This document shows positions 5,032 to 54,524 of a stretch of DNA of 61,188 bases, piece by piece. The stretch is from contig JACOWS010000006.1 of the NCBI GenBank assembly GCA_016176685.1, positions 1 to 61,188 of the forward strand, in the 5' to 3' direction. The DNA is from Patescibacteria group bacterium (lineage in GTDB: Bacteria; Patescibacteriota; Minisyncoccia; Phycocordibacterales; SBAW01). The position numbers and the translations under genes are program-made. The stretch's first letter is position 1; every line of letters begins with the position of its first letter. Below the pieces are notes generated by a model that had not been told where the DNA came from, did not search any database, and saw only the letters and a list, made by a program, of their open reading frames with translations.

Positions 5032-5445
5032 CTAAATCCCGTTCTGCTTAGTGTAGTTACGTTGCATCATTCCCGCCGCTTTCTTCATGCCGAGATCTTC
5101 ATAAAATACCTGCAGTTCAGTGTCGCACAGGAGATCAATCATATAGAATTCTTTGAGCACCAACAGCATTCGAGTAACGAGCTCTTTACCAATCCCTCGC
5201 TTTTGATATTCAGGCAACACTTCGAGAAAAGGAATGTACGCCGCCAGATGCTTATCAGTTATAGCAGTGGCAAACCCGACAACTTTTTTGCTTTGTGGAT
5301 CTAATGCAAGCAGAACATAATCACTATCACGAAGCAACTCCAAATGGCGAGCGGGAGTGGGTGGATTCTGCCACCCCACAAAAAATCCCTGCAAGTCATT
5401 CTCTTTAACATTTTCCAACGATGAAATAAATTCGATGTTACCCAT
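5032..5445 (-). CDS. GNAT family N-acetyltransferase
   Basis: Acetyl-CoA binding motif VLPEYQKRGIGKELV and FYEDLG. Confidence 0.88.
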   Translation of the reverse strand: MGNIEFISSLENVKENDLQGFFVGWQNPPTPARHLELLRDSDYVLLALDPQSKKVVGFATAITDKHLAAYIPFLEVLPEYQKRGIGKELVTRMLLVLKEFYMIDLLCDTELQVFYEDLGMKKAAGMMQRNYTKQNGI

Positions 5446-6406: not shown

Positions 6407-7465
6407 CTACTCTTTAGTTCCAAACAAGCGGTAGAGCGCCAGCTCAAGCGGGAGCGCTGGCAGTGGGGCGCGCGGCGTTTCCACAAGCGCGGTAAGAAGC
6501 TCCGCGAGCATTGCGGAGTTTATTGCCGCCCCCGAAGCGCCGGCGAGTTTTTTTATCAGCACCATATCGTCTGTTCCAAACTGATACTCCAATTCCTTTT
6601 CCATCTTCGGCGCAAAGCGTGCAAGCAAAACCGCTCGCACTCGGGCAACCGCCACCAGCACAAACACGCGCGGCTCTGCCCCCTGCCTAAGCGCGGTATG
6701 GAAAGCGCTGACCGCCGCGGCGATGTCTTTCTCTGCCAGCGCCTGCAAAAAGGCGCCGACAAGCTTGGAAGGAGGTGCCCCCACCACCGCCGCCACCTCG
6801 TCTTCCGTCAGTGTCGCATCGGGAGAGATGGTGAGCACCTTTTGCAAAATCCCCAGCGTGTCGCGGAAGGAACCCTCCCCCATCATGGCAATAAGTTCCG
6901 CACCGGCCGGCGCCAAGCGTGTGCCTTCTTTTTTGGCAATGTCGAGCGCCAGTGTTTTGAGCACCTCGTGCGACGGTTTTTTAAAGTGGAATACCTGGCA
7001 GCGCGATTGCACCGTCTCCGGCACCTTCTCTAGCTCGGTTGTGGCCAGCACAAAAATAGCGTGTTCGGGCGGCTCTTCCAACGTTTTCAGCAGTGTATTG
7101 AAAGCGTCTTTGGTAAACATGTGCACCTCGTCGAGTATGTAAAATTTATAGGTTGAGGAAAATGGCAAGGTTGAGACACCCTCGCGCAGAGTGCGTGCGT
7201 CGTCTACCTGGCGGTTGGAGGCCGCGTCTATCTCGTAGACATCCTCGTCGTGAGTGCCGAGGGCGTGCGCCAAAATGCGCGCCATCGAGGTCTTGCCCGT
7301 GCCGCGCCCGCCGGCAAAGAGGTACGCATGGGCGACCTTTTTTTGTTTGACCGCCGCTTCCAATACCTTGGTGATATGCTCTTGCCCAAGCACCTCGGCA
7401 AAGTTTGCCGGCCTATAGGTGCGATACAGCGCCATCGGCGTACGCTCTGTTTCGACTTTTTTCAT
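6407..7465 (-). CDS. dnaX: DNA polymerase III subunit gamma/tau
   Basis: LYRTYRP; Walker A GGRGTGKT; ILDEVHM; AFNTLLKTLEEPP; TVQSRCQ. Confidence 0.96.
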   Translation of the reverse strand: MKKVETERTPMALYRTYRPANFAEVLGQEHITKVLEAAVKQKKVAHAYLFAGGRGTGKTSMARILAHALGTHDEDVYEIDAASNRQVDDARTLREGVSTLPFSSTYKFYILDEVHMFTKDAFNTLLKTLEEPPEHAIFVLATTELEKVPETVQSRCQVFHFKKPSHEVLKTLALDIAKKEGTRLAPAGAELIAMMGEGSFRDTLGILQKVLTISPDATLTEDEVAAVVGAPPSKLVGAFLQALAEKDIAAAVSAFHTALRQGAEPRVFVLVAVARVRAVLLARFAPKMEKELEYQFGTDDMVLIKKLAGASGAAINSAMLAELLTALVETPRAPLPALPLELALYRLFGTKE

Positions 7466-8577
7466 TGCTTACTTAGTATACCGTTTAGAAACCGCTCTAT
7501 CACCCGCTCTACCTCCCTTGCATTATTTGCCTCCATCAATGCTATACGCAACTCTTTGGCGCTGGGGCTAGCCACATACGCCTTAAAATGCTTTTTCATT
7601 ATGGCGAAATTTTTGATGTCGCCCAACAGCTCTTCAAAAAGCTTGGTGTGTTCTACTACTATTCGCAAACGCTCTTCAAGCGAAGGCAAAAAGCTTTGGA
7701 CAAATGGTCTGGCCCGAAGCCCGCCTGAAGGCGGACGAGGGAAACCCGAGGACCTTTGTCCAGAGCTTTTTGCTGAAGCTTCATCGAACAACCACGGCCG
7801 GCCAAAAATGGCGCGGCCGAGCATAATGCCGTCTGCGCCTGTTTCTTGCGCTTTGGCGCGAGCATCGTCAATGCTCAACATATCGCCATTGCCTATAATA
7901 AGCGTTTTGCTTTTCATTTCATCGCGGATCTCGACCGCCTTTTTTATCCGCTCCCAATGCGCGGGTACTTTTGACATTTCTTTGCGGGTACGCGCATGTA
8001 TCGCTATCGCGGCAGGTTCTGCCACAAGGAGCGCCGGTAGCCACTCTTCTAGTGTGTCTTTGTGGTAGCCAAGCCGCGTTTTGACCGAGACAGGCAAATG
8101 CCGCCCGCCGGGCAGACTCCGTCTGGAGACTCTGTCGGAACGAGCACTCTGGGCGGCGCCGCGTTTGGCCGCGGCTATAAGCTCTTGCGCGAGCTGTGGA
8201 TTAAGTATCAGCTTTGCCCCGGCACCCTGTTTTTCTACCACGCGGTCAGGGCAGCCCATATTGATGTCCACGCCGTCAAAACCGAGGCGCGCCGCCAGTA
8301 CCGCGGCTTTTTCCATATGCGCCGGAGTGGCGGTAAAAAACTGCGCCACTATCGGCCGTTCGGTTTCCGTATACAGTAGATCGCGCAAAAGTTTTTGCCT
8401 TCCCGCTTCCGGCGCGAGTGCCAGGCCGTCGGCCGAGACAAATTCCGTCCACAGCACTGCCGGGCCGGCGGGCTTGCTGTACTTTGCTATGATGCGACGA
8501 AAAGCCGCATCGGTGACGTTAGCCAGCGGCGCCAAACAAAAAAACGGCTTAGGTAGTGAGTCCCAAAAGCTTTGCAT
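7462..8577 (-). CDS. dusB: tRNA-dihydrouridine synthase with two in-frame hairpin insertions
   Basis: LAPLANVTD, DINMGCP, VSVKTRLG, AIHART, GNGD and GIMLGRA. Confidence 0.92.
   Translation of the reverse strand: MQSFWDSLPKPFFCLAPLANVTDAAFRRIIAKYSKPAGPAVLWTEFVSADGLALAPEAGRQKLLRDLLYTETERPIVAQFFTATPAHMEKAAVLAARLGFDGVDINMGCPDRVVEKQGAGAKLILNPQLAQELIAAAKRGAAQSARSDRVSRRSLPGGRHLPVSVKTRLGYHKDTLEEWLPALLVAEPAAIAIHARTRKEMSKVPAHWERIKKAVEIRDEMKSKTLIIGNGDMLSIDDARAKAQETGADGIMLGRAIFGRPWLFDEASAKSSGQRSSGFPRPPSGGLRARPFVQSFLPSLEERLRIVVEHTKLFEELLGDIKNFAIMKKHFKAYVASPSAKELRIALMEANNAREVERVIERFLNGILSKQ
7686..7773. repeat. in-frame hairpin element in dus (shares core with the parB element)
   Basis: 19-bp arms 7686-7704 and 7755-7773 (1 mismatch); core GTCTGGCCCGAAGC...GGGAAACCCGAGGAC. 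Confidence 0.85.
8103..8162. repeat. in-frame REP-like element in dus (shared with 37076-37108)
   Basis: GCCCGCCGGGCAGA (14/14) and GAGCACTCTGGGCGGCGCCGC (20/21) match 37076-37108. Confidence 0.75.
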
Positions 8578-8586
8578 GCCAGTACC

Positions 8587-9420
8587 CTACTGCCCTTTTA
8601 GCTTATAGTACAGTTTGTCGCCAAAGCGAAGGTCAAGGTACTCGAAGTCGGGCAAGGCGTGGGTGGTAAACGGCTCGGCGGTGAGTGCCAAGGTAAAGCG
8701 CTCGTATACGTCGGCACTGTTGTCGTCAATGGAAAAGATGAGCAAAAAATCTTGCTGGAAGTACACGCGCGCGTCGCCGCCTTCGTCTACCACTACTTGC
8801 CGCACCGGGTCTTCCGGTTGGGTTTTTCCAATAGCGGCAACCAGGGCAAAGAGGGCGCGATAATTTTTTTCTGTCAGATATTGCGCGGGCAGTGAACCTC
8901 CAGCCAAGAGCGGCGTCGCGGTACCAAAGTACCGCACATAGGCATCGCCGGAAAAGTCGGCTGCAGGCGCATACACCACCCCTCCCTCATCCATTAGCGC
9001 ACAGCCCGTAGAAGAGGCGCCCGCACCGCACCATAGCGCTTGAGGCGCGCGCTCTGCGACCACAACCGCAAGCGTGTCAAAGTTTTCCGCATGCACGATA
9101 GCACTTTTAAGCGCCGGGAATAGTTTAAGCAGGTTTTGCTCGATGGCGCGCTTGGGGTAAAAAAAGATGCTGTCTTTGGGGATAGCGTATAAGTATGCGC
9201 CGGAAATCGCATCGCGTATCGCCTCTCTAACCTGTGCCGTGGTGACACTTTCGGCACCGGAGATGTCGATTGCCGTCACGCGCACAAAAGGCGCATGTAA
9301 AAACCATATTGCTCCGCCACAGAGCACTAGTAAAAGCGCGCCCAACACAAGCGCTATACGCGCGCGGCGCCCTCGGCGCCGCGCGCGCACTTGAGACATT
9401 GGAAAAGAGACGCGAGCCAT
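8587..9420 (-). CDS. ftsQ: FtsQ/DivIB-like cell division protein (POTRA domain)
   Basis: Basic N-terminus, single TM, POTRA-like segment, C-terminal EYLDLRFGDKLYYK; start set at MARVSF. Confidence 0.75.
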   Translation of the reverse strand: MARVSFPMSQVRARRRGRRARIALVLGALLLVLCGGAIWFLHAPFVRVTAIDISGAESVTTAQVREAIRDAISGAYLYAIPKDSIFFYPKRAIEQNLLKLFPALKSAIVHAENFDTLAVVVAERAPQALWCGAGASSTGCALMDEGGVVYAPAADFSGDAYVRYFGTATPLLAGGSLPAQYLTEKNYRALFALVAAIGKTQPEDPVRQVVVDEGGDARVYFQQDFLLIFSIDDNSADVYERFTLALTAEPFTTHALPDFEYLDLRFGDKLYYKLKGQ

Positions 9421-9544
9421 ACCCTTATAGTATAAGCGAAGCAAAAAATAAGATAAAAGTGAGTCCGAGGCGCGTCGGCGCCGAGGCGAGGGAATTTATC
9501 AGCAGGAAATTCCCGCTCATTTTTATATTATTTTTTGCTTCGCC

Positions 9545-10834
9545 CTACAATTTCACCTTTTCTATTTTCTCTTTCCCCAGATACGCCTGGAGTGCTTTTG
9601 GCACTGCAACCGAGCCGTCCGCCTGCTGGTAGTTTTCAATAATAGCTATAAGGGTGCGGCCTATGGCTATGGCGGTCGCATCATTCATATGTACATGTTC
9701 GCTCGTACCATCAGTGCGTCTAACTTTTGTTCCAAGTCTCCTCGCCTGGAAGCCGCCCACATAGTCGGCGCTGTGCGTCTCGCGGTAGACATTCTGCCCC
9801 GGCATCCAGGTTTCTATATCTATCTGCCGCTGGTCGGGAAAGCCCATGTCGCCGGTGCAGACAATGATAGTTTGGTGCGGCAGCCCGAGCCCCCGCATCA
9901 GATGCTCTTGTATCGCCACCATAAAGTCCTGTTCGGCGATGCCGTCCTCCGGTTTGATAAAACTCTCCATCTCGAGCTTATCGAACTGGTGTTGGCGCAA
10001 AATACCCTTGGTGTCTTTGCCATAGCTGCCTGCCTCGCGGCGGAAAGCGGTCGAGTATCCTACGTAGCGTATAGGCAGGCGCGTCTCGTCCAACATCTCG
10101 TCCATATGCAAGGGCCCCAGCGTATGCTCGGCACTGCCTATCAAAACCAGGTCGTCCTTTTCGAAATAAAAGCGGTCTTCAATGGGGTTGAGGCGGGCCA
10201 TCCGGTTCATCACCTGGGAGCGCATAAAGGCCGGCGGGATAACCGGCACAAAAGGTTTTGGGTCTACAGAAAGATTCGCTTTTTTTGCTATTTTCGCCAA
10301 GGCCTCTCGCGAGGTTAAAACGCCAAGTGCAAATTGCAGGAGCGCAAACTGCATAAGCGCAAGGTCGCCCTTGAGGTAGGTAAAGCGCGCGCCGGAAATA
10401 TCGGCCGCTTTTTCGCTGTCGATGATGCCCAGCGTTTTGCCGATGTCCCAATGCGCCTTGGGTTCAAAATCAAACTTTGGTAGCTCTCCCCACTGCCTGA
10501 GCACCTTGTTGCCCGACTCGTCTTGCCCCACAGGCGTGTCTACCGACGGGATGTTGGGGATTTGTATAAGCAGTGATAGCAGCTCTTTTTCCAGCGTTTG
10601 GTATTGCTCCTCCAGTGCCTTGGCTTCTTCTTTTGACTTTTTACCGGCCTCTGCATCACGGTTATCAGCCGCCTCGTTGCGGCTGCGGTTTGCATCGGCA
10701 AGCTTTCCCGCCAAGACCTTGCGCAGGTCGGCAAGCGTAAGGATTTTGTCGAGGTCTATACCCTCTCTTTTTTTGTTTTTGATAGCCGCGCGCACCAGCT
10801 CCGGGTTCTCGCGTATAAAGGTGATGTCAAGCAT
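9545..10834 (-). CDS. serS: serine--tRNA ligase
   Basis: True start MLDITFIRENPEL at 10834; FRREAGSYGKDTKGILRQHQFDKLE; DIETWMP; RTLIAIIENYQ. Confidence 0.96.
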   Translation of the reverse strand: MLDITFIRENPELVRAAIKNKKREGIDLDKILTLADLRKVLAGKLADANRSRNEAADNRDAEAGKKSKEEAKALEEQYQTLEKELLSLLIQIPNIPSVDTPVGQDESGNKVLRQWGELPKFDFEPKAHWDIGKTLGIIDSEKAADISGARFTYLKGDLALMQFALLQFALGVLTSREALAKIAKKANLSVDPKPFVPVIPPAFMRSQVMNRMARLNPIEDRFYFEKDDLVLIGSAEHTLGPLHMDEMLDETRLPIRYVGYSTAFRREAGSYGKDTKGILRQHQFDKLEMESFIKPEDGIAEQDFMVAIQEHLMRGLGLPHQTIIVCTGDMGFPDQRQIDIETWMPGQNVYRETHSADYVGGFQARRLGTKVRRTDGTSEHVHMNDATAIAIGRTLIAIIENYQQADGSVAVPKALQAYLGKEKIEKVKL

Positions 10835-10861
10835 ATAACTATGGTATATGTGTATCCTACA

Positions 10862-11722
10862 ATGCCATTTCCTATACGACAAATACGGCCACGGGGTTTC
10901 CCCATACTGCTTAAAGAAGTTCCGGACAAGCCGGCGCAGCTCTACATGCGCGGGACACTGCCGCCACCGGAGCACCGGCTCCTGTGCGTGGTTGGCTCGC
11001 GCGCGTGCAGCGCCTATGGCCGTCGGCAGACCCAAAAACTCATCGCCGGACTTGCGCGGGAAAAGGTGGCTATTGTCTCGGGGCTCGCGCTTGGCATAGA
11101 CTCCGAGGCGCACAAAGCGGCGCTCGATGTCGGGCTGCCAACCGTGGCGGTGCTCCCCTCCTCTTGTGACGACGCATCGCTCTACCCCGCTACCAACGCA
11201 GTCCTTGCGGGGCGGATACTTAAGAGTGGCGGCGCCCTGCTTTCCGAGCGTACCGCCCCCTGGAAAGCGCATATACACGACTTTGCCGCTCGCAACCGCA
11301 TTATGGCCGGCATGTCGCAAGCAACTCTTATTATTGAGGCGGGAGAAAAGTCGGGCACGCTCATCACCGCGCGCCTGGCGCTCGACTACAACCGCGAGGT
11401 GCTGTGCATACCGCACGAGCTCGAGCGCATGGGCGGCGCCGGGGCCAACCGGCTTCTGCGGCAAGGGGCAACACTGGTGCAAAACAGTGCCGACATTTTA
11501 GAGGCGCTGGGTTTTACGGCAAGAGCCCCCGTGCAAGCGCCTCTCCCAACCGACCTCACCCCCGAGGAGACGTCGGTGCTCCACACCCTTGCCGAGCCCT
11601 TGGCAAACGACGAGATCATCGAGCGCTCGGGACTCTCGGCACAGGAAGCAAACGCAGCGCTCTCTTCTCTCCTTATCCGCGGGCTCATCGTGGAGCGCCT
11701 GGGTAAAATCGAGCGCCAGTAA
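10862..11722 (+). CDS. dprA: DNA-processing protein DprA/Smf
   Basis: VVGSR, IVSGLALGID, FAARNRIMAG, EAGEKSGTLITA and a C-terminal winged helix; start could be 10841. Confidence 0.94.
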   Translation: MPFPIRQIRPRGFPILLKEVPDKPAQLYMRGTLPPPEHRLLCVVGSRACSAYGRRQTQKLIAGLAREKVAIVSGLALGIDSEAHKAALDVGLPTVAVLPSSCDDASLYPATNAVLAGRILKSGGALLSERTAPWKAHIHDFAARNRIMAGMSQATLIIEAGEKSGTLITARLALDYNREVLCIPHELERMGGAGANRLLRQGATLVQNSADILEALGFTARAPVQAPLPTDLTPEETSVLHTLAEPLANDEIIERSGLSAQEANAALSSLLIRGLIVERLGKIERQ

Positions 11723-11782
11723 AAAAGTAATTCGCCCAACAAATAGTTGACAGGAAGGTTTATTTATAGTAATTAGTAGTAA

Positions 11783-13369
11783 ATGCAATTGAAGATTTCT
11801 GTAAACATTTTGACCTCGCGGGCCATTCAGGCCGGACTCTTGGTATGGCATAGCGCTCTGCGCGTGGGCTTCTGGAAGATAGGTGCCGCGGTGCTGGGCC
11901 TCTTGCTTGGTATAAACGCGGCCGGCCACCTGTTTGGTGCTACAAAAGCCGAACAAGCGGCCACCGACGTGCGCACCGTCTCGGTGCGCACGGTGGCCGA
12001 CCTCGTCAACGAAGGCGAGCCGCTCTCGGTCGCCGGCACGGTAAGTTCCAAGTCGGAAGCATCCGTGCTTGTGCAAAAAACGGGCGGCGTGGTCGGTGTG
12101 TACCATCAGCTCGGCGACTACGTTTCCGCCGGAAGCATTATTGCAGAAATCGACAGTGCGTCCGAGCGCGCGGCCTTGGCGCAGGCGCAGGGGTTGCTTG
12201 ATGCCGCGCGTGCCTCTGGCGGCATTTCGGACACATCTCTCGCCGCCGCGCAAAGTGGTGCCGTAAACACGCTCCTTGCCACCTACGCTATCGTCGACAA
12301 CGCCGTGCGCGGCGGCATAGACCCGATGTTTTCAAACCCAGAAACGGTATACCCGCAATTTAGCGTCCTAAGCTCAAACTCACAGGTAAAAATAGATATA
12401 GAGAACGGGCGCGTGGCACTTTCCCCCCTGCTCGCGCGCGAGCAGGCGCGGGCTACTACACTGGTAAATACCGACGAGCTTGCGGCGGAGCTTGCCGCGA
12501 CCGCAGGAGAGGTGCGTGTAGTGCGTGACTTTTTGGACCAGGTGATTATCACGCTCAACAACGGCATCCCGGCAAACAACATTAGTGCCGCCACCATTGC
12601 TTCGTACAAAGCAACCGCTTCTGCGGCTCGCAGTGCGGTCACCGCGGCGCTCTCCTCGCTCACCGGAGCACAGCAGACACTCACCACGGCAGAGCAAAAC
12701 GCCACCGGCGGGGCCGCCATGTCATCCTCGGCGGGCGCACTGCTTGCGCAAGCACAAGCGGGGCTCAAGGCGGCGGAGATAAATCTTGAAAAAACGCTGA
12801 TACGCGCATCTATTGCCGGCACTATCAACTCGCTTTCGCTCAAGCGGGGCGACTTTGTACAGGCATTTACACCGGCCGCCTCTATCGCCAATAACAATGC
12901 CCTGGAGGTGGTGCTGTATGTAACCGAGGGAGACTCTCGCAACATCCGCGTTGGCGCCAAAGCAATAGTACATGCAGGAAATGGAGCAACTCTTAACGGA
13001 ACGATAACGCGTATTGCGCCGGCACTAGACCCGCTGACAAAAAAAATAGAGGTGCGCGTCGCGGTGGCGGACGAGGCGCACCTGCTCATCAATGGACAGT
13101 CAGTGCTCCTTGCCATTGCCCGCACGCTTGCAACCCCTACGTCCGCGACCTCCCTACCCATCATCATACCCATTGCCGCACTTAAAATCGGCGCCGACGG
13201 CACCAAGATATTTACGGTGAGTGCGAGCTCTAGCGCGGTGGCGCACTCGGTTACGATTGGAGCGCTCCTGGGCGACAAAGTGACCATCAAGGAGGGCCTG
13301 ACTCTCGACATGGAAATAGTGACCGATGCGCGAGGCCTGCAAGACGGCGAGCGGGTATTGGTGCTCTAA
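11783..13369 (+). CDS. RND efflux periplasmic adaptor (HlyD/MFP family) with long helical insert
   Basis: Lipoyl half-motifs VGDYVSAGSIIAEI and IRASIAGTINSLSLKRGDFV; beta-barrel GTITRIAPALDPLTKKIEV; upstream of the AcrB-like gene. Confidence 0.88.
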   Translation: MQLKISVNILTSRAIQAGLLVWHSALRVGFWKIGAAVLGLLLGINAAGHLFGATKAEQAATDVRTVSVRTVADLVNEGEPLSVAGTVSSKSEASVLVQKTGGVVGVYHQLGDYVSAGSIIAEIDSASERAALAQAQGLLDAARASGGISDTSLAAAQSGAVNTLLATYAIVDNAVRGGIDPMFSNPETVYPQFSVLSSNSQVKIDIENGRVALSPLLAREQARATTLVNTDELAAELAATAGEVRVVRDFLDQVIITLNNGIPANNISAATIASYKATASAARSAVTAALSSLTGAQQTLTTAEQNATGGAAMSSSAGALLAQAQAGLKAAEINLEKTLIRASIAGTINSLSLKRGDFVQAFTPAASIANNNALEVVLYVTEGDSRNIRVGAKAIVHAGNGATLNGTITRIAPALDPLTKKIEVRVAVADEAHLLINGQSVLLAIARTLATPTSATSLPIIIPIAALKIGADGTKIFTVSASSSAVAHSVTIGALLGDKVTIKEGLTLDMEIVTDARGLQDGERVLVL

Positions 13370-13381
13370 CCTTCCCCGCCT

Positions 13382-16300
13382 ATGCTCCCCCTTTGGAAAT
13401 TTTTTATAGAAAAGAGGCAGTTCACCATACTGCTTATGTTGGTGCTCTTAGCGTGGGGCAGCGTCGCTACGATACGCATCACCAAAGAGTCTGCTCCGGA
13501 GGTGCAAATACCGGTTGGCATTGTTACCACCGCATTACCGGGTGCCTCCGCGGAAGACATAGAAAAGCTGGTCACCAACAAGCTTGAGCAGAACCTTACC
13601 AGTCTTACCAACCTGGAAAAGCTTACCTCCACCTCTCGCGACGGCGTCTCGGTTATTGTTGCCGAGTTTAGTGCCTCCGCAAACCTAAACCAGTCTATTC
13701 AAGACCTCAAGGACCAAGTAGACAAAGTAAGAGGCGACCTGCCCGCCGATGCCACCGACCCGTCGGTTACCGACGTCAACTTTGTCGACCAGCCGATACA
13801 AATTATCTCCATTACCGCTGACCTGCCATTTGCAAAGTTTGCGGAACTCGGGGAGGAGGTAAAAAATGAGCTGCAGACGGTCCGCGGCGTCTCCAAGGTA
13901 ACTGTTTCCGGCGTGCGCAACCGAGAGATAAACGTTGTGGTCAAAAAAGAGCAGATAGCGCGGTACGGCATTTCCCTTTCGCAGGTGGTTGCGGCCATCT
14001 CGTCCGCAAATGCCTCACTGCCCGTTGGTGCCATCACCGTTGGGAACATCTCCTACAACATTGCGTTTGAAGGAGGTCTCGACACCGTGAGCGCCTTCCA
14101 TAGCATCCCCCTCCTACTGGCCAGCAACCAGGTGGTGTATTTGCGCGACATTGCCGACGTGTCCGACGGAGTAGAAAAAGCGACCTCATACTCGCGGGTA
14201 GCCATAGGGAAAAATCCCAGCCGCCAAGCACTGACGCTTGCGGTGTTTAAAACACACGGGCAAGACGTAACCACTACTACAGGGGGCGTTAAACAAAAAC
14301 TGGACGAACTTACAAACACGCTCCTGCGAGGAAGCGAGATTGTTATTACCTATGACACCGGCGAGGAGGTGGCGAAAGACCTCTATGAACTTACCCGTAC
14401 CGGCATCATTACCATGACCCTGGTTATGCTCGTGCTCTTTGCCACACTCGGTTGGCGCGAGGCGCTGGTGGCGGGTATGTCAGTCCCTTTCTCTTTTCTT
14501 ATCGCGTTTGTGGGGCTCTGGTACTCCGGCAACACGTTTAATTTTGTTTCCCTCTTCTCTCTCATTCTTGCTATCGGCATTTTGGTTGACTCGGGCATCG
14601 TGGTGGTCGAGGCCATACACACCCGAGTTAGGATTTTTGGCGACAAAAAAAAGGCGGCCATACAAGCGCTCGAGGAGTACGCATGGCCACTTATCGGCGG
14701 CACGATGACAACCGTTGCGGTGTTTATACCGCTCTTTTTTATCTCTGGTATTGTAGGCAAATTTATCGCCTCCATCCCCTACACGGTTATCTTTGTGCTT
14801 ATGGCGAGCATCTTCGTGGCGCTGGGGTTTGTTCCTATGTGGGCGATGCTATGTACCTCCACCGGGCGCTCGCCGCTTACCGACCGGCAGGAGCAGTATA
14901 CGGAAAAAATGCGGGTGTGGTACACACAAAAACTCGGCTTATTTTTCAAAAACCGCGCCGCGCAAAACCGCTTTTTGGTCGCTATCTTTGCGAGCTTTAT
15001 ACTTGCGGTACTCCTCCCCATTACCGGCATCATAAAAGTAAACTTTTTTCCGCAGGACGACTCCGACTTTTTGTACGTCGATATCGAGCTCCCCGTCGGT
15101 ACAGAGCTTGAGACAAGCGACCTTTCGGCACGCCAGGTGGAAGAGGCGTTGTATGGCCTTGCGGATGCAGACTCAACCATCACCAGTGTGGGCAACACCA
15201 GTTCATTCGGCAACAACCCGCAAAGCGGCGCGCGGTACGCCAATGTAACCATCAATCTTGCGGCGGACCGCGCACACTCTTCAACCGACATACTCGCCGA
15301 GGTGCAGACTCGTCTCAAAAATATCCACAGCGCAACCATCCGCGCGGGGCAGCCCTCGGGCGGGCCGCCGGTCGGCGCACCCATACTCATACAATTTTTC
15401 GGGCAAGATAGAGACGCGCTTGACCAGGCGCTCTTAGAAGCACAAAGAGCACTGCAAAAAATTTCCGGAATCATCAACATCGACCCGTCAAACAAAAACG
15501 ACGGTACCGAGTTTATCCTCCGCATAAACCGCGACAAAGTGGCGGCGCTGGGGCTCACACCGCAAGCGGTTGCCTTGACCTTGCGCACGGCTATTGCCGG
15601 CTCCAAAGCAACCACGCTAGTGGGCGGCGAGCGCGATGTAAACCTCATGGTCTCACTCAACCTCAACCCTGTGTACACCGACCCGCACGACGCCTCGCGC
15701 GTGTCTCTAGATGCAATACACCAGATACCGATACAAACACCGTCCGGCGCAAGTGTGCTCCTTGGGTCGGTGCTGGAGTCGAGTATCGGGCGCAGTGATG
15801 CGGTTATCAACCACGAAAATCGCCAGCGCGTTGCTTCCATTTCTACCAACCTAGAGGCCCCGCTCACCACGGCAGAAGCCATTGAACAGTTCAACAAAAA
15901 TATGGCGGGCGTAGAGCTGCCGAAAGGGGTAACGATGAAAATCGGCGGAGAAAACGAACAGACTAACCGGTCGTTTGCAGAGATGGGTTTTGCTTTGGTC
16001 GCCGGGTTGGCGCTCATGTTTGTGATATTGGTGCTTGCCTTCAACTCCTTCCGATTTACCACTTACCTGCTTTCCGTCGTGCCGCTTTCGCTCATAGGAG
16101 TCTTTGGCGGGCTGGCGCTCACGGGCCAGGCACTTTCGTTTTCTTCTCTGCTTGGCATCATCGCACTGGCCGGGGTCATAATCAACCACGCCATTATTCT
16201 TATGGACGCTATCATCAAGCGCATGCGGGCAAGCGCCGGGTATGCCTTAAGCGACATCGTGGTTGACGCGGCAGTCTCTCGGCTGCGCCCTATTGTCCTT

Positions 16301-16492
16301 ACCACCGTCACTACCGTTATCGGCATGATTCCGCTCACGACAGTCTCCGCTCTGTGGGGGCCGCTGGCGTTCGCAATACTCTTTGGCCTTTCGTTTGCAA
16401 TGATACTCACACTCGTACTTATCCCCACACTGGTCTACCGCTGGCCTGGAAAATTACCGAGCAACGTTACGCGCGGGGAATACATTTTATAA
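13382..16492 (+). CDS. RND efflux permease (AcrB/AcrD/AcrF family)
   Basis: 1036 aa, 12-TM architecture; LAIGILVDSGIVVVE, GVIINHAIILMD and RLRPIVLTTVTT. Confidence 0.95.
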   Translation: MLPLWKFFIEKRQFTILLMLVLLAWGSVATIRITKESAPEVQIPVGIVTTALPGASAEDIEKLVTNKLEQNLTSLTNLEKLTSTSRDGVSVIVAEFSASANLNQSIQDLKDQVDKVRGDLPADATDPSVTDVNFVDQPIQIISITADLPFAKFAELGEEVKNELQTVRGVSKVTVSGVRNREINVVVKKEQIARYGISLSQVVAAISSANASLPVGAITVGNISYNIAFEGGLDTVSAFHSIPLLLASNQVVYLRDIADVSDGVEKATSYSRVAIGKNPSRQALTLAVFKTHGQDVTTTTGGVKQKLDELTNTLLRGSEIVITYDTGEEVAKDLYELTRTGIITMTLVMLVLFATLGWREALVAGMSVPFSFLIAFVGLWYSGNTFNFVSLFSLILAIGILVDSGIVVVEAIHTRVRIFGDKKKAAIQALEEYAWPLIGGTMTTVAVFIPLFFISGIVGKFIASIPYTVIFVLMASIFVALGFVPMWAMLCTSTGRSPLTDRQEQYTEKMRVWYTQKLGLFFKNRAAQNRFLVAIFASFILAVLLPITGIIKVNFFPQDDSDFLYVDIELPVGTELETSDLSARQVEEALYGLADADSTITSVGNTSSFGNNPQSGARYANVTINLAADRAHSSTDILAEVQTRLKNIHSATIRAGQPSGGPPVGAPILIQFFGQDRDALDQALLEAQRALQKISGIINIDPSNKNDGTEFILRINRDKVAALGLTPQAVALTLRTAIAGSKATTLVGGERDVNLMVSLNLNPVYTDPHDASRVSLDAIHQIPIQTPSGASVLLGSVLESSIGRSDAVINHENRQRVASISTNLEAPLTTAEAIEQFNKNMAGVELPKGVTMKIGGENEQTNRSFAEMGFALVAGLALMFVILVLAFNSFRFTTYLLSVVPLSLIGVFGGLALTGQALSFSSLLGIIALAGVIINHAIILMDAIIKRMRASAGYALSDIVVDAAVSRLRPIVLTTVTTVIGMIPLTTVSALWGPLAFAILFGLSFAMILTLVLIPTLVYRWPGKLPSNVTRGEYIL

Positions 16493-16536
16493 GTTGTGCT
16501 TTGCACATTTTTTGACTTCGGTGTATCAATAGCGAA

Positions 16537-18780
16537 ATGAAGTTGGTTATTGTTGAGTCGCCCGCAAAGGCAAAGACTATAGAAAAGTATCTTTCCCACA
16601 TCGACCAGAAGGGCGACTTTGTCGTGCGCGCCTCGGTGGGCCATGTGCGCGACCTGCCCAAGAGCAACAAAAAGGCGATAGATATTGAGGGTGGATTTGT
16701 CCCCCATTACGAGGTGGTGCCGGGAAAAGCGCGGGTTATCCACGAGCTTAGGGAGCTGGCACACAAAGCCGGCGAGGTTATACTGGCGACCGACCCAGAC
16801 CGCGAGGGCGAGGCGATTGCCTGGCACATACAAGAGGAACTGGGGCTTAAAAAACCAAAGAGAATCGTCTTTTACGAAATTACGGAGGAGGCCATAGCGG
16901 AGGCGCTGGCACACCCGCGTACCATTGACGACCACTTGCGGCTGGCACAAGAGGCGCGCCGCGTACTCGACCGGCTCGTGGGCTACGACCTTTCAGGACT
17001 TATATGGAAAAAGGTTCGCTACGGCCTTTCGGCCGGCCGTGTTCAAAGTCCGGCGCTCCGCATCATTATGGAGCGCGAGCGCGAGATACGCGCTTTTAAA
17101 CCGGAAACGTTTTATGTAATCACCGCACAGACAAAAACGCCTAAAAAAGAATCTCTGGTGTTGACCTGTTCTGAAGAGCCAAAAGAAAAGCGGGAATCGG
17201 AGCGCATCATAGCGGCGGTAAAAAAAGACGGGCTTATCGTTGCCGGTGTTACGGAAAGTGAGATGAAGCGCGCCGCCCGCGCACCTTTTACCACTTCAAC
17301 CCTGCAGCAAACGGCCTCAACCAGGCTGGGGTTCTCTCCTCAAAACACGATGCGTATCGCACAAAAGCTGTATGAGGCCGGGCATATTACCTACATGCGC
17401 ACCGACTCAACCAACCTCGGAGCCGCCGCGCAAAGCGCACTACTTGCCCAGGTGGAAAAAAAATACGGCAAAGAGTACGCAGCGGCCAACACCTTTGCCG
17501 CCAAGTCCAAAAACGCGCAGGAGGCGCACGAGGCGGTGCGTCCCACCCACGCGGACAAAGAGTCTATGGGCTCGACCCCCGAGCAGAAAAAACTCTACGA
17601 GCTTATCTGGCGGCGCGCCATCACTTCGCAAATGGCCGATGCAAAACTGCTTAAGACAAAAATCACCGCTCAAGTTCCAAGGGTCGCCCTTGGACATGTC
17701 CAAGGGCGACCCTTGGAACAAATTCCGGAATTTACCGCCAACGGCTCGCGCGTGGTATTTGACGGCTGGCTCCGCGCCGACCCGGCCGCACGCGGCGAAG
17801 ATGTCGAGCTTCCAAAAGTGGAGCAAAAAGAAGCGTTGGTTGTCGAAGAGGTCTCTTCCGAAGAAAAGCAGACCACCCCGCCGCCGCGCTACACCGAAGC
17901 GGGACTTATTAAAGAGTTGGAGAAGCGCGGCATCGGCCGCCCGTCCACTTACGCGAGCATTATGAAGACGCTTGCCGACCGCGGCTACGTGGTAAAAGAG
18001 GGTCGGAGTTTGCAGCCGACCGACACAGGCGACGTCGTTTCCACCTTTTTGGAAAAAAACTTTCCCTCCTACATCAGCGACACCTTTACCGCCGAGATGG
18101 AAGACGAGCTCGACGAAATAGCCGATGGCAAGCGCGAGTACGCAAAGACGCTCCGCGATTTTTATACCCCGTTTCGTAAAGAAGTAAAAATAAAAGACAA
18201 AGAGGCGGGGAAAATAACCGACCTCGGCCCCGCACCAAAAGAGTTTCCCTGTCCGGTATGCGGTGCCGGCATGGTGTTTAAACTCTCGCGCCAAGACACC
18301 TTTATGAGCTGCGCCCGCTTCCCCGACTGTTTGGGTGCGCGTACCGAGAAGGGAGAAGTACTTTTAAACGAGCCGCCAAAACCAATCGGTACGTATCCAG
18401 AAACAGGCGAGCCCATTTATGTGCTTAGCGGGCGCTTTGGCCCGTATGTCCAGGTTGGTGATACGCCGACCGGCAAAGGGTCAAGGTCGAAAAACAAGCC
18501 GCACCGCGCAAGCGTCCCAAAGGGAAAAGTGCCGGAAGAGGTGACTCTTAAAGATGCGTTAAAATATCTTTCGCTCCCGCGCGTGCTGGGCAACCATCCG
18601 GAAACTAATGAGCCCATTTCCGCAAACATCGGGCGCTTTGGCCCGTATGTCGTGCATCAAAAAGACTTCCGCTCGCTCAAAACAGACGATGTCTACACCA
18701 TAGAGCTTCAAAGAGCACTCGAAATTTTGAGAGAGGAAAAAAAGAAGCGCGGCTTCGCGCGCAAAAGTAAAAAGGAGTAG
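16537..18780 (+). CDS. topA: DNA topoisomerase I with an in-frame 46-bp palindrome
   Basis: VIVESPAKAKTI, ATDPDREGE, SAGRVQ, ITYMRTD, GIGRPSTY; Zn ribbon and Toprim C-terminal repeats. Confidence 0.97.
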   Translation: MKLVIVESPAKAKTIEKYLSHIDQKGDFVVRASVGHVRDLPKSNKKAIDIEGGFVPHYEVVPGKARVIHELRELAHKAGEVILATDPDREGEAIAWHIQEELGLKKPKRIVFYEITEEAIAEALAHPRTIDDHLRLAQEARRVLDRLVGYDLSGLIWKKVRYGLSAGRVQSPALRIIMEREREIRAFKPETFYVITAQTKTPKKESLVLTCSEEPKEKRESERIIAAVKKDGLIVAGVTESEMKRAARAPFTTSTLQQTASTRLGFSPQNTMRIAQKLYEAGHITYMRTDSTNLGAAAQSALLAQVEKKYGKEYAAANTFAAKSKNAQEAHEAVRPTHADKESMGSTPEQKKLYELIWRRAITSQMADAKLLKTKITAQVPRVALGHVQGRPLEQIPEFTANGSRVVFDGWLRADPAARGEDVELPKVEQKEALVVEEVSSEEKQTTPPPRYTEAGLIKELEKRGIGRPSTYASIMKTLADRGYVVKEGRSLQPTDTGDVVSTFLEKNFPSYISDTFTAEMEDELDEIADGKREYAKTLRDFYTPFRKEVKIKDKEAGKITDLGPAPKEFPCPVCGAGMVFKLSRQDTFMSCARFPDCLGARTEKGEVLLNEPPKPIGTYPETGEPIYVLSGRFGPYVQVGDTPTGKGSRSKNKPHRASVPKGKVPEEVTLKDALKYLSLPRVLGNHPETNEPISANIGRFGPYVVHQKDFRSLKTDDVYTIELQRALEILREEKKKRGFARKSKKE
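17674..17719. repeat. perfect 46-bp palindrome in topA (REP doublet)
   Basis: GTTCCAAGGGTCGCCCTTGGACATGTCCAAGGGCGACCCTTGGAAC is its own reverse complement. Confidence 0.95.
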
Positions 18781-18790
18781 TATAGGTGTA

Positions 18791-20341
18791 ATGCCTGCTA
18801 TCCCGACCGCACAAGACATTATTGCTCTTATGGGTGCGCCGAGTGCCGAGGACAAAACCTTGGTAGAGAAAGCGTATGCTTTCGCGGCCGATGCGCACAA
18901 AGACCACAAACGGCTCTCCGGCGAGCCATACCTTATTCACCCCGCCGAGACAGCCAAAGAGCTCGCCAAGCTCGGCATGGGGGCCAAAACAGTTGCGGCT
19001 GGGCTTTTGCACGACACGGTGGAGGATGTCGGCGTGGAGTCCGAAACAATTGAAAAAGAGTTTGGCAAAGAGGTACGCTTTTTGGTAGAGGGGGTAACCA
19101 AGCTCGGCCAGCTTAAGTATCGCGGCACCGGGCGCCATCGGGAGAGTTTGCGCAAATTGTTGGTGGCCACCGGCAAAGACGCTCGAGTTTTGATAATCAA
19201 GCTTATGGACCGGCTCCACAACATGCGCACTCTCGCCTATGTGCCCAAGGAAAAGCGCGAGCGCATTGCGCTGGAGACTCTTGAAATTTACGCGGCCATA
19301 GCACACCGGCTTGGTATGGGCGTGGTGCGCCGCGAGTTGGAGGACCTGGCTTTTGAGCATGCATACCCAAAGGAATTTGCACACACCAAAAAGCTTTTGA
19401 GCGAGAAGGCCAAAGAGGCACAGAAGCGACTCGAGGTAATGGCGCGTACTTTGCGCAAAAAACTTGCCGAGGGCGGTATTGTAAAGTTTGAGAGTGACCA
19501 TCGCGTCAAGGGTATTTGGAGTCTTCATCAAAAATTAAAACGTAAAGGTGGTGACATGAGCGAGATCCATGACATCGCGGCGCTACGCGTGGTGGTTGCG
19601 ACAGTGCCGGAGTGTTACCGTGCTCTGGGGATAGTCAACAACCTATGGCAACCTTTGATGGGCAAAATAAAAGACTACATAGCCTTCCCCAAACCAAACG
19701 GGTATCAGAGCCTGCACACCACGGTATTTACCGGCGATGGCAACATTGTAGAGATACAAATCCGCACCAAGGAAATGCACGATCGGGCAGAGTACGGTAT
19801 TGCCGCACATGTGATGTACAAAGAGCGTGGAGGTACCACTACCAGTCGCGCGTCAAGTTTTGACTGGATCAAAAGTCTTATACCAAAAATAGGTCGCAGT
19901 AGCGAAACAGACAATCCTAAGGTGGAAGAAAAAGTTGAGGAGCGCAGTCACCGCTATGGCGACCCGTCCGCGCCGGAGTGGCTCGCTCGGCTGGGAGAAG
20001 AAGGGGTTGACGACCCCGAGTTTGAGACAACACTTAAAACAGACATTTTTACCCACCGGGTGTTTGCCTTTACCCCCAAGGGCGACGTGGTAGACCTGCC
20101 GCTTAATGCAACTCCAGTCGACTTTGCCTTTGCCATACATTCCGATATCGGCAGTCGGATTTCGGGCGCCAGGGTCAACGGCAAGATGGTGCCTTTCGAC
20201 ACGGTACTACACAATGGCGACATTGTAGAGATAGAAACGCGCAAGTCTGCACGCCCCACAAAAAAATGGCTCAATTATGCGAAGACCACTCTCGCTCGCA
20301 GACACATCCGTAGCGCCCTTGGCCAAGATGAAAAAAGTTAG
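18791..20341 (+). CDS. rel: RelA/SpoT family (p)ppGpp synthetase/hydrolase (HD-SYNTH-TGS, no ACT domain)
   Basis: LLHDTVED, IKLMDRLHNMRT, KDYIAFPKPNGYQSLHT, EIQIRT and the TGS motif TPVDFAFAIHS. Confidence 0.92.
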   Translation: MPAIPTAQDIIALMGAPSAEDKTLVEKAYAFAADAHKDHKRLSGEPYLIHPAETAKELAKLGMGAKTVAAGLLHDTVEDVGVESETIEKEFGKEVRFLVEGVTKLGQLKYRGTGRHRESLRKLLVATGKDARVLIIKLMDRLHNMRTLAYVPKEKRERIALETLEIYAAIAHRLGMGVVRRELEDLAFEHAYPKEFAHTKKLLSEKAKEAQKRLEVMARTLRKKLAEGGIVKFESDHRVKGIWSLHQKLKRKGGDMSEIHDIAALRVVVATVPECYRALGIVNNLWQPLMGKIKDYIAFPKPNGYQSLHTTVFTGDGNIVEIQIRTKEMHDRAEYGIAAHVMYKERGGTTTSRASSFDWIKSLIPKIGRSSETDNPKVEEKVEERSHRYGDPSAPEWLARLGEEGVDDPEFETTLKTDIFTHRVFAFTPKGDVVDLPLNATPVDFAFAIHSDIGSRISGARVNGKMVPFDTVLHNGDIVEIETRKSARPTKKWLNYAKTTLARRHIRSALGQDEKS

Positions 20342-21387
20342 ATTGAGAAGTTTTTCGGGTCAAACGTGTTTTCGTCTATAGTTTTTTCCTCTTCCGAGCG
20401 GTCGTCGAGATACTCCGCAGAAATATCGCCGTCAGCAGAGGCGGCACTGTCCTGCAAAATAGTCTGGCCCGAAGCTCGCTCACCTAGGCGAGCTTCGGGA
20501 GACCCGAGGACTTTTTGCAGGACAGTGCCGCCGGCGTTCTCTTGTTTTATTGAGGTAGCTTTTGCAACCAGCGAGTTGAGCAGTCCGCGCAGGTCGTCCT
20601 CGGTCATAAAGTCTATAGAGACTTTGCCACCGTTCTCCTTTGGCTCTATGGCGACGCGGGTGCCCAATACCTCGGTAAGGTCGCGCTCCATTTGCAAAAT
20701 CTCCGGCGCATAGAGGTACTCTTTTTTGCGCACGCGGTCGGTGGCGATGCGGCGTGCGATAGCCTCTGTGTCGCGCACGGTCAAACGTTTGAGCATAATT
20801 TCTTTAAACAGCACTGCCTGCTCGGCCGGGCGCTCTATAAGCATCAAAAGCGGCCGGGTGTGCCCCTCGTTTATCTTGCCTTCCGCCAGTGCTTGGCGCA
20901 TCTCCTCCGGCAGCCCAAGTATCCGCAGAGAGTTGGAGACATACTCGCGGCTCTTGCCAATTTTGCTGGCAATTTCCGTGTGTTTAAATCCAAACTCTTT
21001 TACCAACTTTTCAAATGCTTGCGCGCGGTCTAAGGGGTTTAAGTCCTCGCGCTGGAGGTTTTCTATAATAGCCAATTCCAGTTTGGTTTTGTCGTCGTCA
21101 AAACCGGCACGGATAAGGACGGGCACTTGAGCTATACCGGCGATTTTTGCGGCGCGCAGGCGCCGCTCGCCGGCTATAAGCTCATACTCGGCAGCCAGCC
21201 CTCCCTCCGCCTTTTCCACCTCGCGGCGCGAGACGGTTAGCGGTTGCAAGACACCATACTGGCGTATGGAGCGCGCAAGGTCGGCCAACTTAGCCTCGTC
21301 AAACTCTTTGCGGGGCTGAAAGGGATTGGGTTTTATCTTGTCTACCTCTATCCAAAAAATCGCGTTGTTGAAAAACTCGGAAGCCAT
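20338..21387 (-). CDS. parB: ParB/Spo0J partition protein with an in-frame hairpin in the C-terminal tail
   Basis: IKPNPFQPRKEF, GVLQPLTV, AGERRLRA and IIENLQREDLNP. Confidence 0.93.
   Translation of the reverse strand: MASEFFNNAIFWIEVDKIKPNPFQPRKEFDEAKLADLARSIRQYGVLQPLTVSRREVEKAEGGLAAEYELIAGERRLRAAKIAGIAQVPVLIRAGFDDDKTKLELAIIENLQREDLNPLDRAQAFEKLVKEFGFKHTEIASKIGKSREYVSNSLRILGLPEEMRQALAEGKINEGHTRPLLMLIERPAEQAVLFKEIMLKRLTVRDTEAIARRIATDRVRKKEYLYAPEILQMERDLTEVLGTRVAIEPKENGGKVSIDFMTEDDLRGLLNSLVAKATSIKQENAGGTVLQKVLGSPEARLGERASGQTILQDSAASADGDISAEYLDDRSEEEKTIDENTFDPKNFSI
20440..20532. repeat. in-frame hairpin element in parB (shares core with dus 7686-7773)
   Basis: Perfect 20-bp arms 20440-20459 and 20513-20532; inner 12-bp stem CCCGAAGCTCGC/GCGAGCTTCGGG. 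Confidence 0.88.
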
Positions 21388-23045: not shown

Positions 23046-24011
23046 GTGGCAAAAAAGATTAGAATAATTGCGGTGGTGGGTCCTACCGCTTCTGGCAAGT
23101 CTTCGCTCGGGGTCTACCTTGCACAAAAGTGCGGGGGTGAAATCATTTCTGCCGACAGCCGGCAAGTATACCGCGGGCTTAACATCGGCAGCGGCAAGGT
23201 AACAAAAAAAGAAATGGCGGGTGTCCCCCACCACCTGCTTGATGTTGCCTCACCAAAAAAGCAATTTTCTGCCGACGACTTTGTAAAACATTCAGAAAGA
23301 GCGATAAAAGATATAACGGAAAGTGACTTGATATATCAAGTCACTTTCCGCGCGCAACTCCCCCCCGTGCCAATTGTGGTGGGCGGCACCGGGTTTTATA
23401 CAGACGCGCTTTTGGGGCGCATTACCCTGCCCCAGGTACCGCCAAACCAAAAACTGCGAGAACAACTGGAACAAAAAACAGTCGAGCAATTATTCAAACA
23501 ACTCAAAAAGCTCGATCCCAATCGTGCCAAAACTATAGAGCCATACCACAAGCGCCGGCTCATCAGAGCAATAGAAATAGCTAAATATCCCAACAAATTA
23601 TTGACTACTGGTAAAAATCATAGAGGCGATGCCTCTATGAAATATGATGTGCTTTGGCTTGGTCTTAAGCCCAATACAGAAAAGTTAAAGAAAAACATTC
23701 ATACTCGCCTGCTGGCTCGACTTAAACAAGGCATGGTCGCAGAGGCCAAGCGCCTGCATGCCAGGGGGCTTTCGTACAAACGGATGGAGGAGCTGGGGCT
23801 GGAGTATCGCTCGCTTGCAAAATTTTTACAGAAAAAAATAAGCAAAAAAGAGCTTGAGGAAGAAATAGAGCGTGGTAATTGGCTCTACGCCAAACGGCAA
23901 ATGCGCTGGTTTAAACGCAACCCCGACATCCACTGGGTCAAAAGCCCGCCTGACAGTCGGGCAGGCAAAACAGAGGCCCTGCGGTTGGCGCGAAAGTTTT
24001 TAAAAGATTAG
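23046..24011 (+). CDS. miaA: tRNA dimethylallyltransferase with three in-frame palindromes
   Basis: VVGPTASGKS, IISADSRQVYRG, VVGGTGFY, RRLIRAIE and YAKRQMRWF; GTG start inferred at 23046. Confidence 0.94.
   Translation: MAKKIRIIAVVGPTASGKSSLGVYLAQKCGGEIISADSRQVYRGLNIGSGKVTKKEMAGVPHHLLDVASPKKQFSADDFVKHSERAIKDITESDLIYQVTFRAQLPPVPIVVGGTGFYTDALLGRITLPQVPPNQKLREQLEQKTVEQLFKQLKKLDPNRAKTIEPYHKRRLIRAIEIAKYPNKLLTTGKNHRGDASMKYDVLWLGLKPNTEKLKKNIHTRLLARLKQGMVAEAKRLHARGLSYKRMEELGLEYRSLAKFLQKKISKKELEEEIERGNWLYAKRQMRWFKRNPDIHWVKSPPDSRAGKTEALRLARKFLKD
23317..23350. repeat. perfect 34-bp palindrome in miaA
   Basis: CGGAAAGTGACTTGATATATCAAGTCACTTTCCG. Confidence 0.92.
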
Positions 24012-54426: not shown

Positions 54427-54524
54427 ATTTCACGCACAAATTTAAAAAAGTCGGCGCTCCGGGCCGTTAAAGACACAAGTCTTACCGACTTTTTTAATTT
54501 TGTGCGCTCCTGTATACTGTTTCT

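Follow-up and report, generated by a model that had tools for sequence, protein, structure and literature searches.

Two genes in a 61,188-nt stretch of Patescibacteria DNA (contig JACOWS010000006.1 of assembly GCA_016176685.1; hereafter the window), dus and parB, contain the same hairpin core, read in different frames. We assign both copies to one family, termed family A, and propose that its members are probably old palindromic DNA repeats of ~90-100 nt that reside in Patescibacteria (CPR, candidate phyla radiation). They would sit in frame within permissive inter-domain loops of housekeeping genes and be translated with their hosts, with stems shaped by template switching and a core read by a trans-acting factor. 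Family A is very unlikely to be a self-cleaving or self-splicing RNA, which had been the leading idea of an earlier note made from the letters of this stretch.

The same hairpin core is present in dus and parB

The block GTCTGGCCCGAAGC matches exactly between positions 7707-7720 and 20462-20475 of the window, and a second block, GGGARACCCGAGGAC, is found at 7739-7753 and 20497-20511 with 14 of 15 positions identical. In both genes the paired blocks frame a small hairpin, which differs between the two, and a long inverted repeat closes the whole; an inverted-repeat scan returned 19-nt arms with one mismatch in dus (copy A1) and perfect 20-nt arms in parB (copy A2). A given 14-mer is expected 4.6e-4 times in the window, a figure that leaves the second block, the block order and the flanking repeats uncounted, and the arrangement is therefore not due to chance. 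The two shared blocks and the closing stems of 19-20 bp, as reported in the earlier note, were thus recovered at the same positions and far above the chance level. The host genes and the parts of each copy are listed below.

7462..8577, minus strand: dus (tRNA-dihydrouridine synthase), host of A1; Pfam PF01207, E = 4.8e-51, with a match that spans the insert
7686..7704, plus strand: A1 left outer arm, pairing with 7755-7773; the gene strand encodes FVQSFL
7705..7754, plus strand: A1 core, with blocks 7707-7720 and 7739-7753 around a covarying apical hairpin, CCGCC TGAA GGCGG; 106 bits with covariance model R1 (CM R1, described below)
7755..7773, plus strand: A1 right outer arm; the gene strand encodes AKSSGQ
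20338..21387, minus strand: parB, host of A2; Pfam ParB_N, HTH_ParB and ParB_C
20440..20459, plus strand: A2 left outer arm, a perfect 20-nt inverted repeat with 20513-20532
20460..20512, plus strand: A2 core, with blocks 20462-20475 and 20497-20511 around a perfect 12-bp inner stem; 95 bits with CM R1
20513..20532, plus strand: A2 right outer arm, an inverted repeat with the left arm

The dus insert lies between the TIM barrel, at the residues PWLF, and the C-terminal helical domain, and the parB insert lies in a variable linker that leads from the dimerisation domain to the conserved C-terminal tail. The core is translated as RSSGFP...RARPF in Dus and as VLGSP...SGQT in ParB, and the predicted peptides encoded by the two elements are RSSGFPRPPSGGLRARPF and VLGSPEARLGERASGQTILQ. 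A dus orthologue without the element is 26 codons shorter at the insertion point, giving a net insert of 78 nt. In a shallow AlphaFold2 model of Dus, residues 255-297 form coil with a predicted local distance difference test score (pLDDT) below 50 and are the least confident segment.

The dus gene carries a second insertion at 8092-8158 (51 nt, 17 residues, AQSARSDRVSRRSLPGGRH), absent from the comparison loci L047 and L052. It is GC-rich, holds small internal hairpins and contains a GTCTGCCCGG stretch that resembles a family-A block.

Family A occupies five host genes in both orientations

CM R1 was trained on 11 copies and then applied to orthologous loci retrieved by way of protein homologues (comparison loci are labelled L001-L057). 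Together with scans of genome and metagenome collections, this brought family A to 15 copies, all on Patescibacteria-type contigs; the search for more copies, for which the earlier note had suggested a covariance model, thereby added 13 to the two in the window. Close copies score 86-106 bits. All named records with family A belong to Patescibacteria (Nomurabacteria, Adlerbacteria), and the closest relative of the window ParB is labelled as a groundwater CPR bacterium. The pattern scan of the genome collection gave 40 matches, of which 35 were chance occurrences in GC-rich genomes on which CM R1 scored nothing, and three true copies came from the metagenome collection. The viral collection returned two family-A matches, both chance and without a CM score, and none for the sister family B described below; with no true copies in that collection, we see no sign of a phage vector.

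The only hosts are dus, parB, recJ, lepA and a phosphoribosyltransferase gene. Within each, the position of the element in the protein is constant, with Pfam domains on both sides in one open reading frame (ORF). We call a copy "sense" when the strand carrying GTCTGGCCCGAAG is the host coding strand, and "antisense" when that strand is opposite to the mRNA:

Dus: antisense in the window, L055 and L057; sense in L038
ParB: antisense in the window, in L050 and L051 (near-identical contigs) and in L056; sense in L052 (diverged)
RecJ: antisense in L037; sense in L012
LepA: antisense in L039; sense in L020 and L045
Phosphoribosyltransferase: antisense in L044; sense in L046

Across the 15 copies, about nine are antisense and six sense, and both orientations occur at all five family-A sites (six sites when family B is counted), in each case between lineages. 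Every host ORF runs through its copy unbroken; between them, the copies place the core in at least four reading frames and on either strand. The core is open in five of its six frames, and every frame in use is one of these.

The core is constrained as nucleic acid

Family A has a common anatomy. The A-rich/T-rich outer stem spans ~20 bp and leads to an asymmetric internal loop of conserved sequence (5'-TCTGG CCC GAA / GA GGG AGACCCGAGGA-3'), beyond which lies a short apical hairpin that covaries. In the family alignment the arms follow a degenerate A-rich/T-rich pattern with a recurring GCAAAA/TTTTGC motif. The outer stems had been described as unrelated in sequence; this holds for the distal arms, which differ between copies, and fails next to the core, where AAAT(A/G)G...C(C/T)TTT is common to all of them.

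In alignment A4, 89% of cells are paired under the stated structure, as against 71% in column shuffles and 40-51% with slid partners. Changes on both sides were found in 22 of the 33 pairs, a level reached in none of 500 shuffles, and the covariation extends to both the closing stem, for which the earlier note had asked for such a check, and the inner stem. Individual compensatory changes include C20470-G20497 to T-A in L050 (parB) and CCGCC/GGCGG to CCGTC/GACGG in L055 (dus).

Sequence identity in the core, 87-91% between orthologues with saturated synonymous sites, also exceeds that of the host gene's synonymous sites. For dus, the core is identical at 46 of 53 positions between the window and L055, while four-fold sites of the host gene are 32% identical. 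For parB, about 50 of 55 core positions (~91%) are shared by the window and L056 against a same-residue codon identity background of 42.5%, and 14 of the 16 same-residue codons in the element are identical (P = 2.7e-4). Copies differ in frame, so the constraint is one on the nucleic acid, as had been proposed from dus and parB alone; the same core in at least four frames and on both strands, conserved beyond host synonymous sites, bears that proposal out.

Two further features of the alignment were recorded. In several, not all, copies a CG(A/G)AG motif immediately flanks the arms on both sides, in direct orientation (alignment A4, columns 1-5 and 97-102); it resembles the CCCGAAG / CCCGAGG blocks of the core. 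In L039 and L055 the apical hairpin has the sequence CCGTCTGAA-GACGG, which is similar to the DNA uptake sequence of Neisseria; we regard this resemblance as coincidence since the copy number is far too low.

The element is kept in frame and is very unlikely to be a catalytic RNA

Between the window and L055, two 1-nt indels within the dus core shift the local frame, and the total from PWLF to EH is 150 versus 153 nt. Two compensating indels with length held at 150/153 nt indicate selection for the reading frame throughout the element. Excision of the dus hairpin, 88 nt in length, would leave the rest of the mRNA out of frame. On this evidence, family-A copies are probably transcribed and translated with their hosts, adding ~26-30 residues that would form a disordered loop.

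That the element might instead be a structured catalytic RNA, or an intron removed from the mRNA, was suggested by a junction-like conserved region with covarying stems and by a possible tandem G-A internal loop, the latter on one strand only. We now find this scarcely credible. No ribozyme or intron family of Rfam was matched, even at E = 10: gathering thresholds were passed by tRNAs only, and the matches at E <= 10 were generic hairpins of microRNA type, far below their cut-offs. Either strand gives the same rod-like fold with no branches (energies of -48 to -72 kcal/mol, z = -7 to -11), about nine of the 15 copies are antisense to the host mRNA, and the frame is preserved throughout, compensating indels included. 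The 88-nt length of the dus hairpin and the confinement of a core open in five of six frames to its open frames point the same way.

Stems are extended and corrected, and cores are replaced

Three other palindromes in the window bear on how such stems and cores change:

23317..23369, plus strand: miaA 34-nt perfect palindrome plus 19 further nt; zero-spacer palindrome at 23317-23350, insertion at 23334-23369
17674..17719, plus strand: topA 46-nt perfect palindrome with zero spacer, kept in four relatives through compensatory double changes
9436..9543, plus strand: hairpin with core C1, intergenic between the seryl-tRNA synthetase (SerRS) gene and a POTRA-domain gene, from the inverted-repeat scan

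In miaA, positions 23334-23369 are a 36-nt insertion relative to L052 and L053, the first 17 nt of which repeat the native left flank exactly in inverted form; the palindrome also shows one compensatory change relative to L050. Within family A, the 20-bp arm of parB in L052 extends into the native AATTCTG. Comparison of the window parB with its 95%-identical orthologue L050 revealed five clustered substitutions in the distal arms, with a palindrome 4-5 bp longer in the window; the outermost 5 bp of the A2 arms are not complementary in L050. In A2, the GAA/GA internal loop of the family has been turned into perfect pairing. Such extension and correction is the signature of template-switch mutation (PMC8794818, PMC7202029).

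Derivation of every arm pair from native flank and an inverted copy of it was dropped as a full account for dus, where the element-free orthologue lacks both arms. The degenerate arm pattern common to all copies also opposes a simple flank copy, which is valid for the distal extensions only. As separate observations, the trailing 19 nt of the miaA insertion, CGCGCAACTCCCCCCCGTG, have no second copy in the window or the fetched loci, and the topA palindrome consists of two head-to-head CCAAGGG-N3-CCCTTGG hairpins; a similar CAAGGG hairpin doublet occupies cysteine desulfurase (IscS) site 1 in L001.

Cores can also be substituted at a fixed site. The 94%-identical dus orthologue in L047, the closest relative, carries, at 5343-5430, core D (CTCCGGAAAGATGAACGGGAGCCCTACTCCTGCA) instead of core A, inside an 18-21-bp perfect inverted repeat that shares only its outermost arm bases with the window. 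Core D recurs, 33 of 34 positions identical, in the SerRS-POTRA spacer of L052, where the window and L047 carry C1. This spacer (window 9436-9543; L047 3640-3750; L052 12190-12270) forms a long terminator-like hairpin with homologous outer GCAAAAA/TTTTTGC arms. Comparison of orthologues shows that cores are exchanged between sites and take one another's place on the same outer arms, that whole elements invert between close relatives, and that the outer stem drifts in sequence while its complementarity is kept. Elements also appear to be lost at times, leaving a small palindrome: the "empty" dus site of L054 holds a perfect 10-nt palindrome, GAGAATTCTC, between the PWLF and PSLE codons, which may be what a deleted stem left at its base; the site would then once have been occupied.

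A sister family occurs in cysteine desulfurase

The inverted-repeat scan also identified family B, with the core GGTAAGACTTGG..TAGCGGCCCGGAGCGC, twice in one cysteine desulfurase gene and once between genes:

31938-33266, minus strand: cysteine desulfurase gene, host of copies 1 and 2
32207..32286, plus strand: family B copy 1, in frame in the cysteine desulfurase gene
32644..32734, plus strand: family B copy 2, in the cysteine desulfurase gene
54433..54506, minus strand: family B copy 3, intergenic

Alignment to solved IscS structures places both genic copies as insertions of ~25 residues, and 20 Patescibacteria homologues have variable inserts at the same two positions. Among homologues, each of the four stop-free frames of the core is in use (GKTWPSGPER, ALRAARPSLT, RSGPLGQV and VRLGLAARS). 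Copy 1, at IscS site 2, is wholly inverted in the 82%-identical L001, arm asymmetries included, and is absent from L002. Copy 2 marks a hot spot, with different content in each of four close relatives.

Proposed mechanism and competing explanations

In the mechanism that we propose, intra-strand (snap-back) template switching during replication would create, repair and extend stem complementarity into native flanking codons, inversion would occur via recombination or strand switching between the arms, and selection would retain only copies that preserve the frame and are free of stops. The conserved internal loop would serve as the handle for a trans-acting factor specific for the hairpin structure. 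The leading candidate for that factor would be an enzyme of the HUH/IS200/RAYT kind, acting on folded single-stranded DNA and copying cores into existing hairpins. We also entertain, tentatively, a wider possibility, in which cores A, B, C1 and D may all be "hairpin cassettes" of 35-50 nt with an asymmetric internal loop, read by a Patescibacteria-wide factor for folded nucleic acid. Such cassettes would be copied into existing palindromes of essential genes, flipped there and exchanged between them, with neither terminal repeats nor target duplications nor a transposase next to them, and some residents would be under purifying selection for a function at their locus. If true, this would be a new mode of DNA mobility or maintenance inside coding sequence.

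Several points weigh against our favoured account. With ~2-5 family-A copies per genome, the copy number is low for an active mobile element. We saw no target-site duplication of a consistent kind around family-A copies and identified, within the fetched loci alone, no transposase or other partner protein and no autonomous insertion sequence with the same ends. Junk selfish copies should decay, and the window and L056 parB keep the same 7-nt loop, TCACCTA, at 77% protein identity; such retained site-specific detail makes function at the locus a serious alternative. Template switching can itself yield covariation, which thus proves no selection on structure. Frame conservation is the sole line of evidence that suggests translation; a search for RNA runs that contain the locus found none, and the AlphaFold2 model of Dus is poor (mean pLDDT 62.5) and serves solely to place the insert in the least confident segment.

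The main rival is a hairpin that functions for the host, its core being a cis-acting site selected at each locus. Such a site might be bound by a nucleoid or regulatory protein when the DNA is duplex or forms a cruciform, or might act in the mRNA as a hairpin that could pause ribosomes at domain boundaries or enforce transcription-translation coupling. We judge this explanation rather unlikely as a whole. In its favour, orthologous copies are conserved far above neutral with site-specific details kept, as in the parB pair above, and the insertion points coincide with domain boundaries: between the barrel and the helical domain in Dus, between the G domain and domain II in LepA, behind the DHH domain in RecJ, and in the linker of ParB. 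The fold is very stable, one arm is rich in A and its partner in T, and in either orientation an A-tract, a GC-rich stem and a U-tract give the shape of a bidirectional intrinsic terminator; one weak terminator-like match inside A2, in a region with 39 matches against 24.5 expected, is suggestive only. Orientation-independent function would also be expected of a palindrome. What this explanation leaves unaccounted for is the conserved primary sequence of the internal loop, since a need for folding alone would not preserve it, and an RNA binder specific for one sequence could recognise only one of the two orientations. Close relatives show the element to be dispensable, with a decayed and flipped copy (L052), another core (L047) or none (L054), and no candidate binding protein emerged. 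Counts of G:T versus A:C mismatches, which distinguish RNA or single strands from duplex DNA, showed no bias and no strand preference, at numbers too small to be telling.

Two narrower explanations each capture part of the data. Were the hairpins pure by-products of template switching in repair-poor lineages, with no mobility or recognition factor and with shared cores left by one ancient duplication, the inverted copying of native flank and the multi-base compensatory changes would follow directly, by a mechanism known to create and maintain hairpins (PMC8794818). We consider this improbable: it leaves unexplained why five unrelated genes have one 45-50-nt core in common, why core D recurs with 33/34 identity at a second, unrelated site, and why unpaired internal-loop bases are 87-91% conserved next to saturated synonymous sites. 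The other is an intragenic inverton, in which an enzyme would reversibly invert the DNA between the arms, these serving as its inverted repeats, and so switch the loop peptide within a population, a form of phase variation inside genes (as in PMC10028968). Both orientations do occur at the same site in close relatives, in families A and B, both are stop-free, and inversion leaves the length unchanged. Against this, contigs from four metagenomes with this strain contained a single form, although contigs drop rare variants; the arms differ between copies, which makes one site-specific invertase unlikely; the inserted peptides are not conserved; and the breakpoints fall in the distal arms, as expected for homology-driven rather than site-specific inversion. 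We regard the inverton as highly improbable, and retain the translated palindromic repeat with template-switch stems and a trans-acting factor as the probable account.

Relation to known systems

The closest analogue of family A is the Rickettsia palindromic element (RPE; summarised in PMC10969869 and PMC3184786). Both are short palindromic repeats of a reduced-genome bacterium, in frame in housekeeping genes and translated, or in our case probably translated, as extra surface loops; both comprise several families, and neither has a known adjacent transposase. Family A would thus work like an RPE without being a member of that group: its host is a groundwater Patescibacterium, of another phylum, and no sequence relation to RPE-1 to RPE-8 is expected. 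It is also shorter (88-93 nt versus ~100-150), conserves the hairpin centre while its arms are lineage-specific, occupies the same few orthologous sites across distant genomes, inverts frequently, and has one core replacing another at a single site.

REP/REPIN-RAYT and IS200/IS605-derived palindromes (PMC3733652) are likewise small and non-autonomous; their hairpins are imperfect, have conserved asymmetric features and are of the type that HUH Y1 transposases recognise in single-stranded DNA. REPs, however, are 20-40 nt long with a GTAG or CGTC tag that the family-A consensus lacks, and are mostly extragenic with a high copy number; in REPINs the arms are conserved and the loop is variable, the reverse of family A. 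Family A differs from miniature inverted-repeat transposable elements in that terminal inverted repeats are not conserved between copies, which share only 6-8 stem bases adjacent to the core.

Long perfect inverted repeats within translated coding sequence are also found in the mitochondria of Nematomorpha (PMC6649704), although these are gene-specific, have no shared core, do not form a dispersed family and belong to animal organelles. Template-switch (quasipalindrome) mutation (PMC8794818, PMC7202029) produces perfect arms in one step, multi-base compensatory changes and correction of imperfect palindromes, all three of which are present here; it is a mutational process rather than an element, and does not account for a conserved core in unrelated genes. 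Intragenic invertons (PMC10028968) resemble family A in that inverted repeats flank a short segment within an ORF and both orientations can be read, but here inversion was seen between lineages only and the arms differ at every locus. A search of the full-text literature yielded no description of such elements in Patescibacteria.

Patescibacteria are uncultured and have minimal repair systems, and their proteins are known for lineage-specific insertions of unexplained origin. Family A would provide a concrete source of such insertions, namely hairpin DNA repeats written into essential genes. Its unusual features are a conserved core with a variable stem, constraint independent of frame and orientation, and core replacement at a single site, and their combination points to a structure-specific process on folded DNA. 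In practical terms, such inserts break assemblies at palindromes, inflate apparent protein divergence, and mimic introns or ribozymes.

The parB element was also seen in assembly run X1, where contigs break exactly at the palindrome (window 20448-20508), as expected for k = 31. A minor unitig of 60 nt at this element, one base different and at a depth of 15 versus 67, indicates a strain variant.

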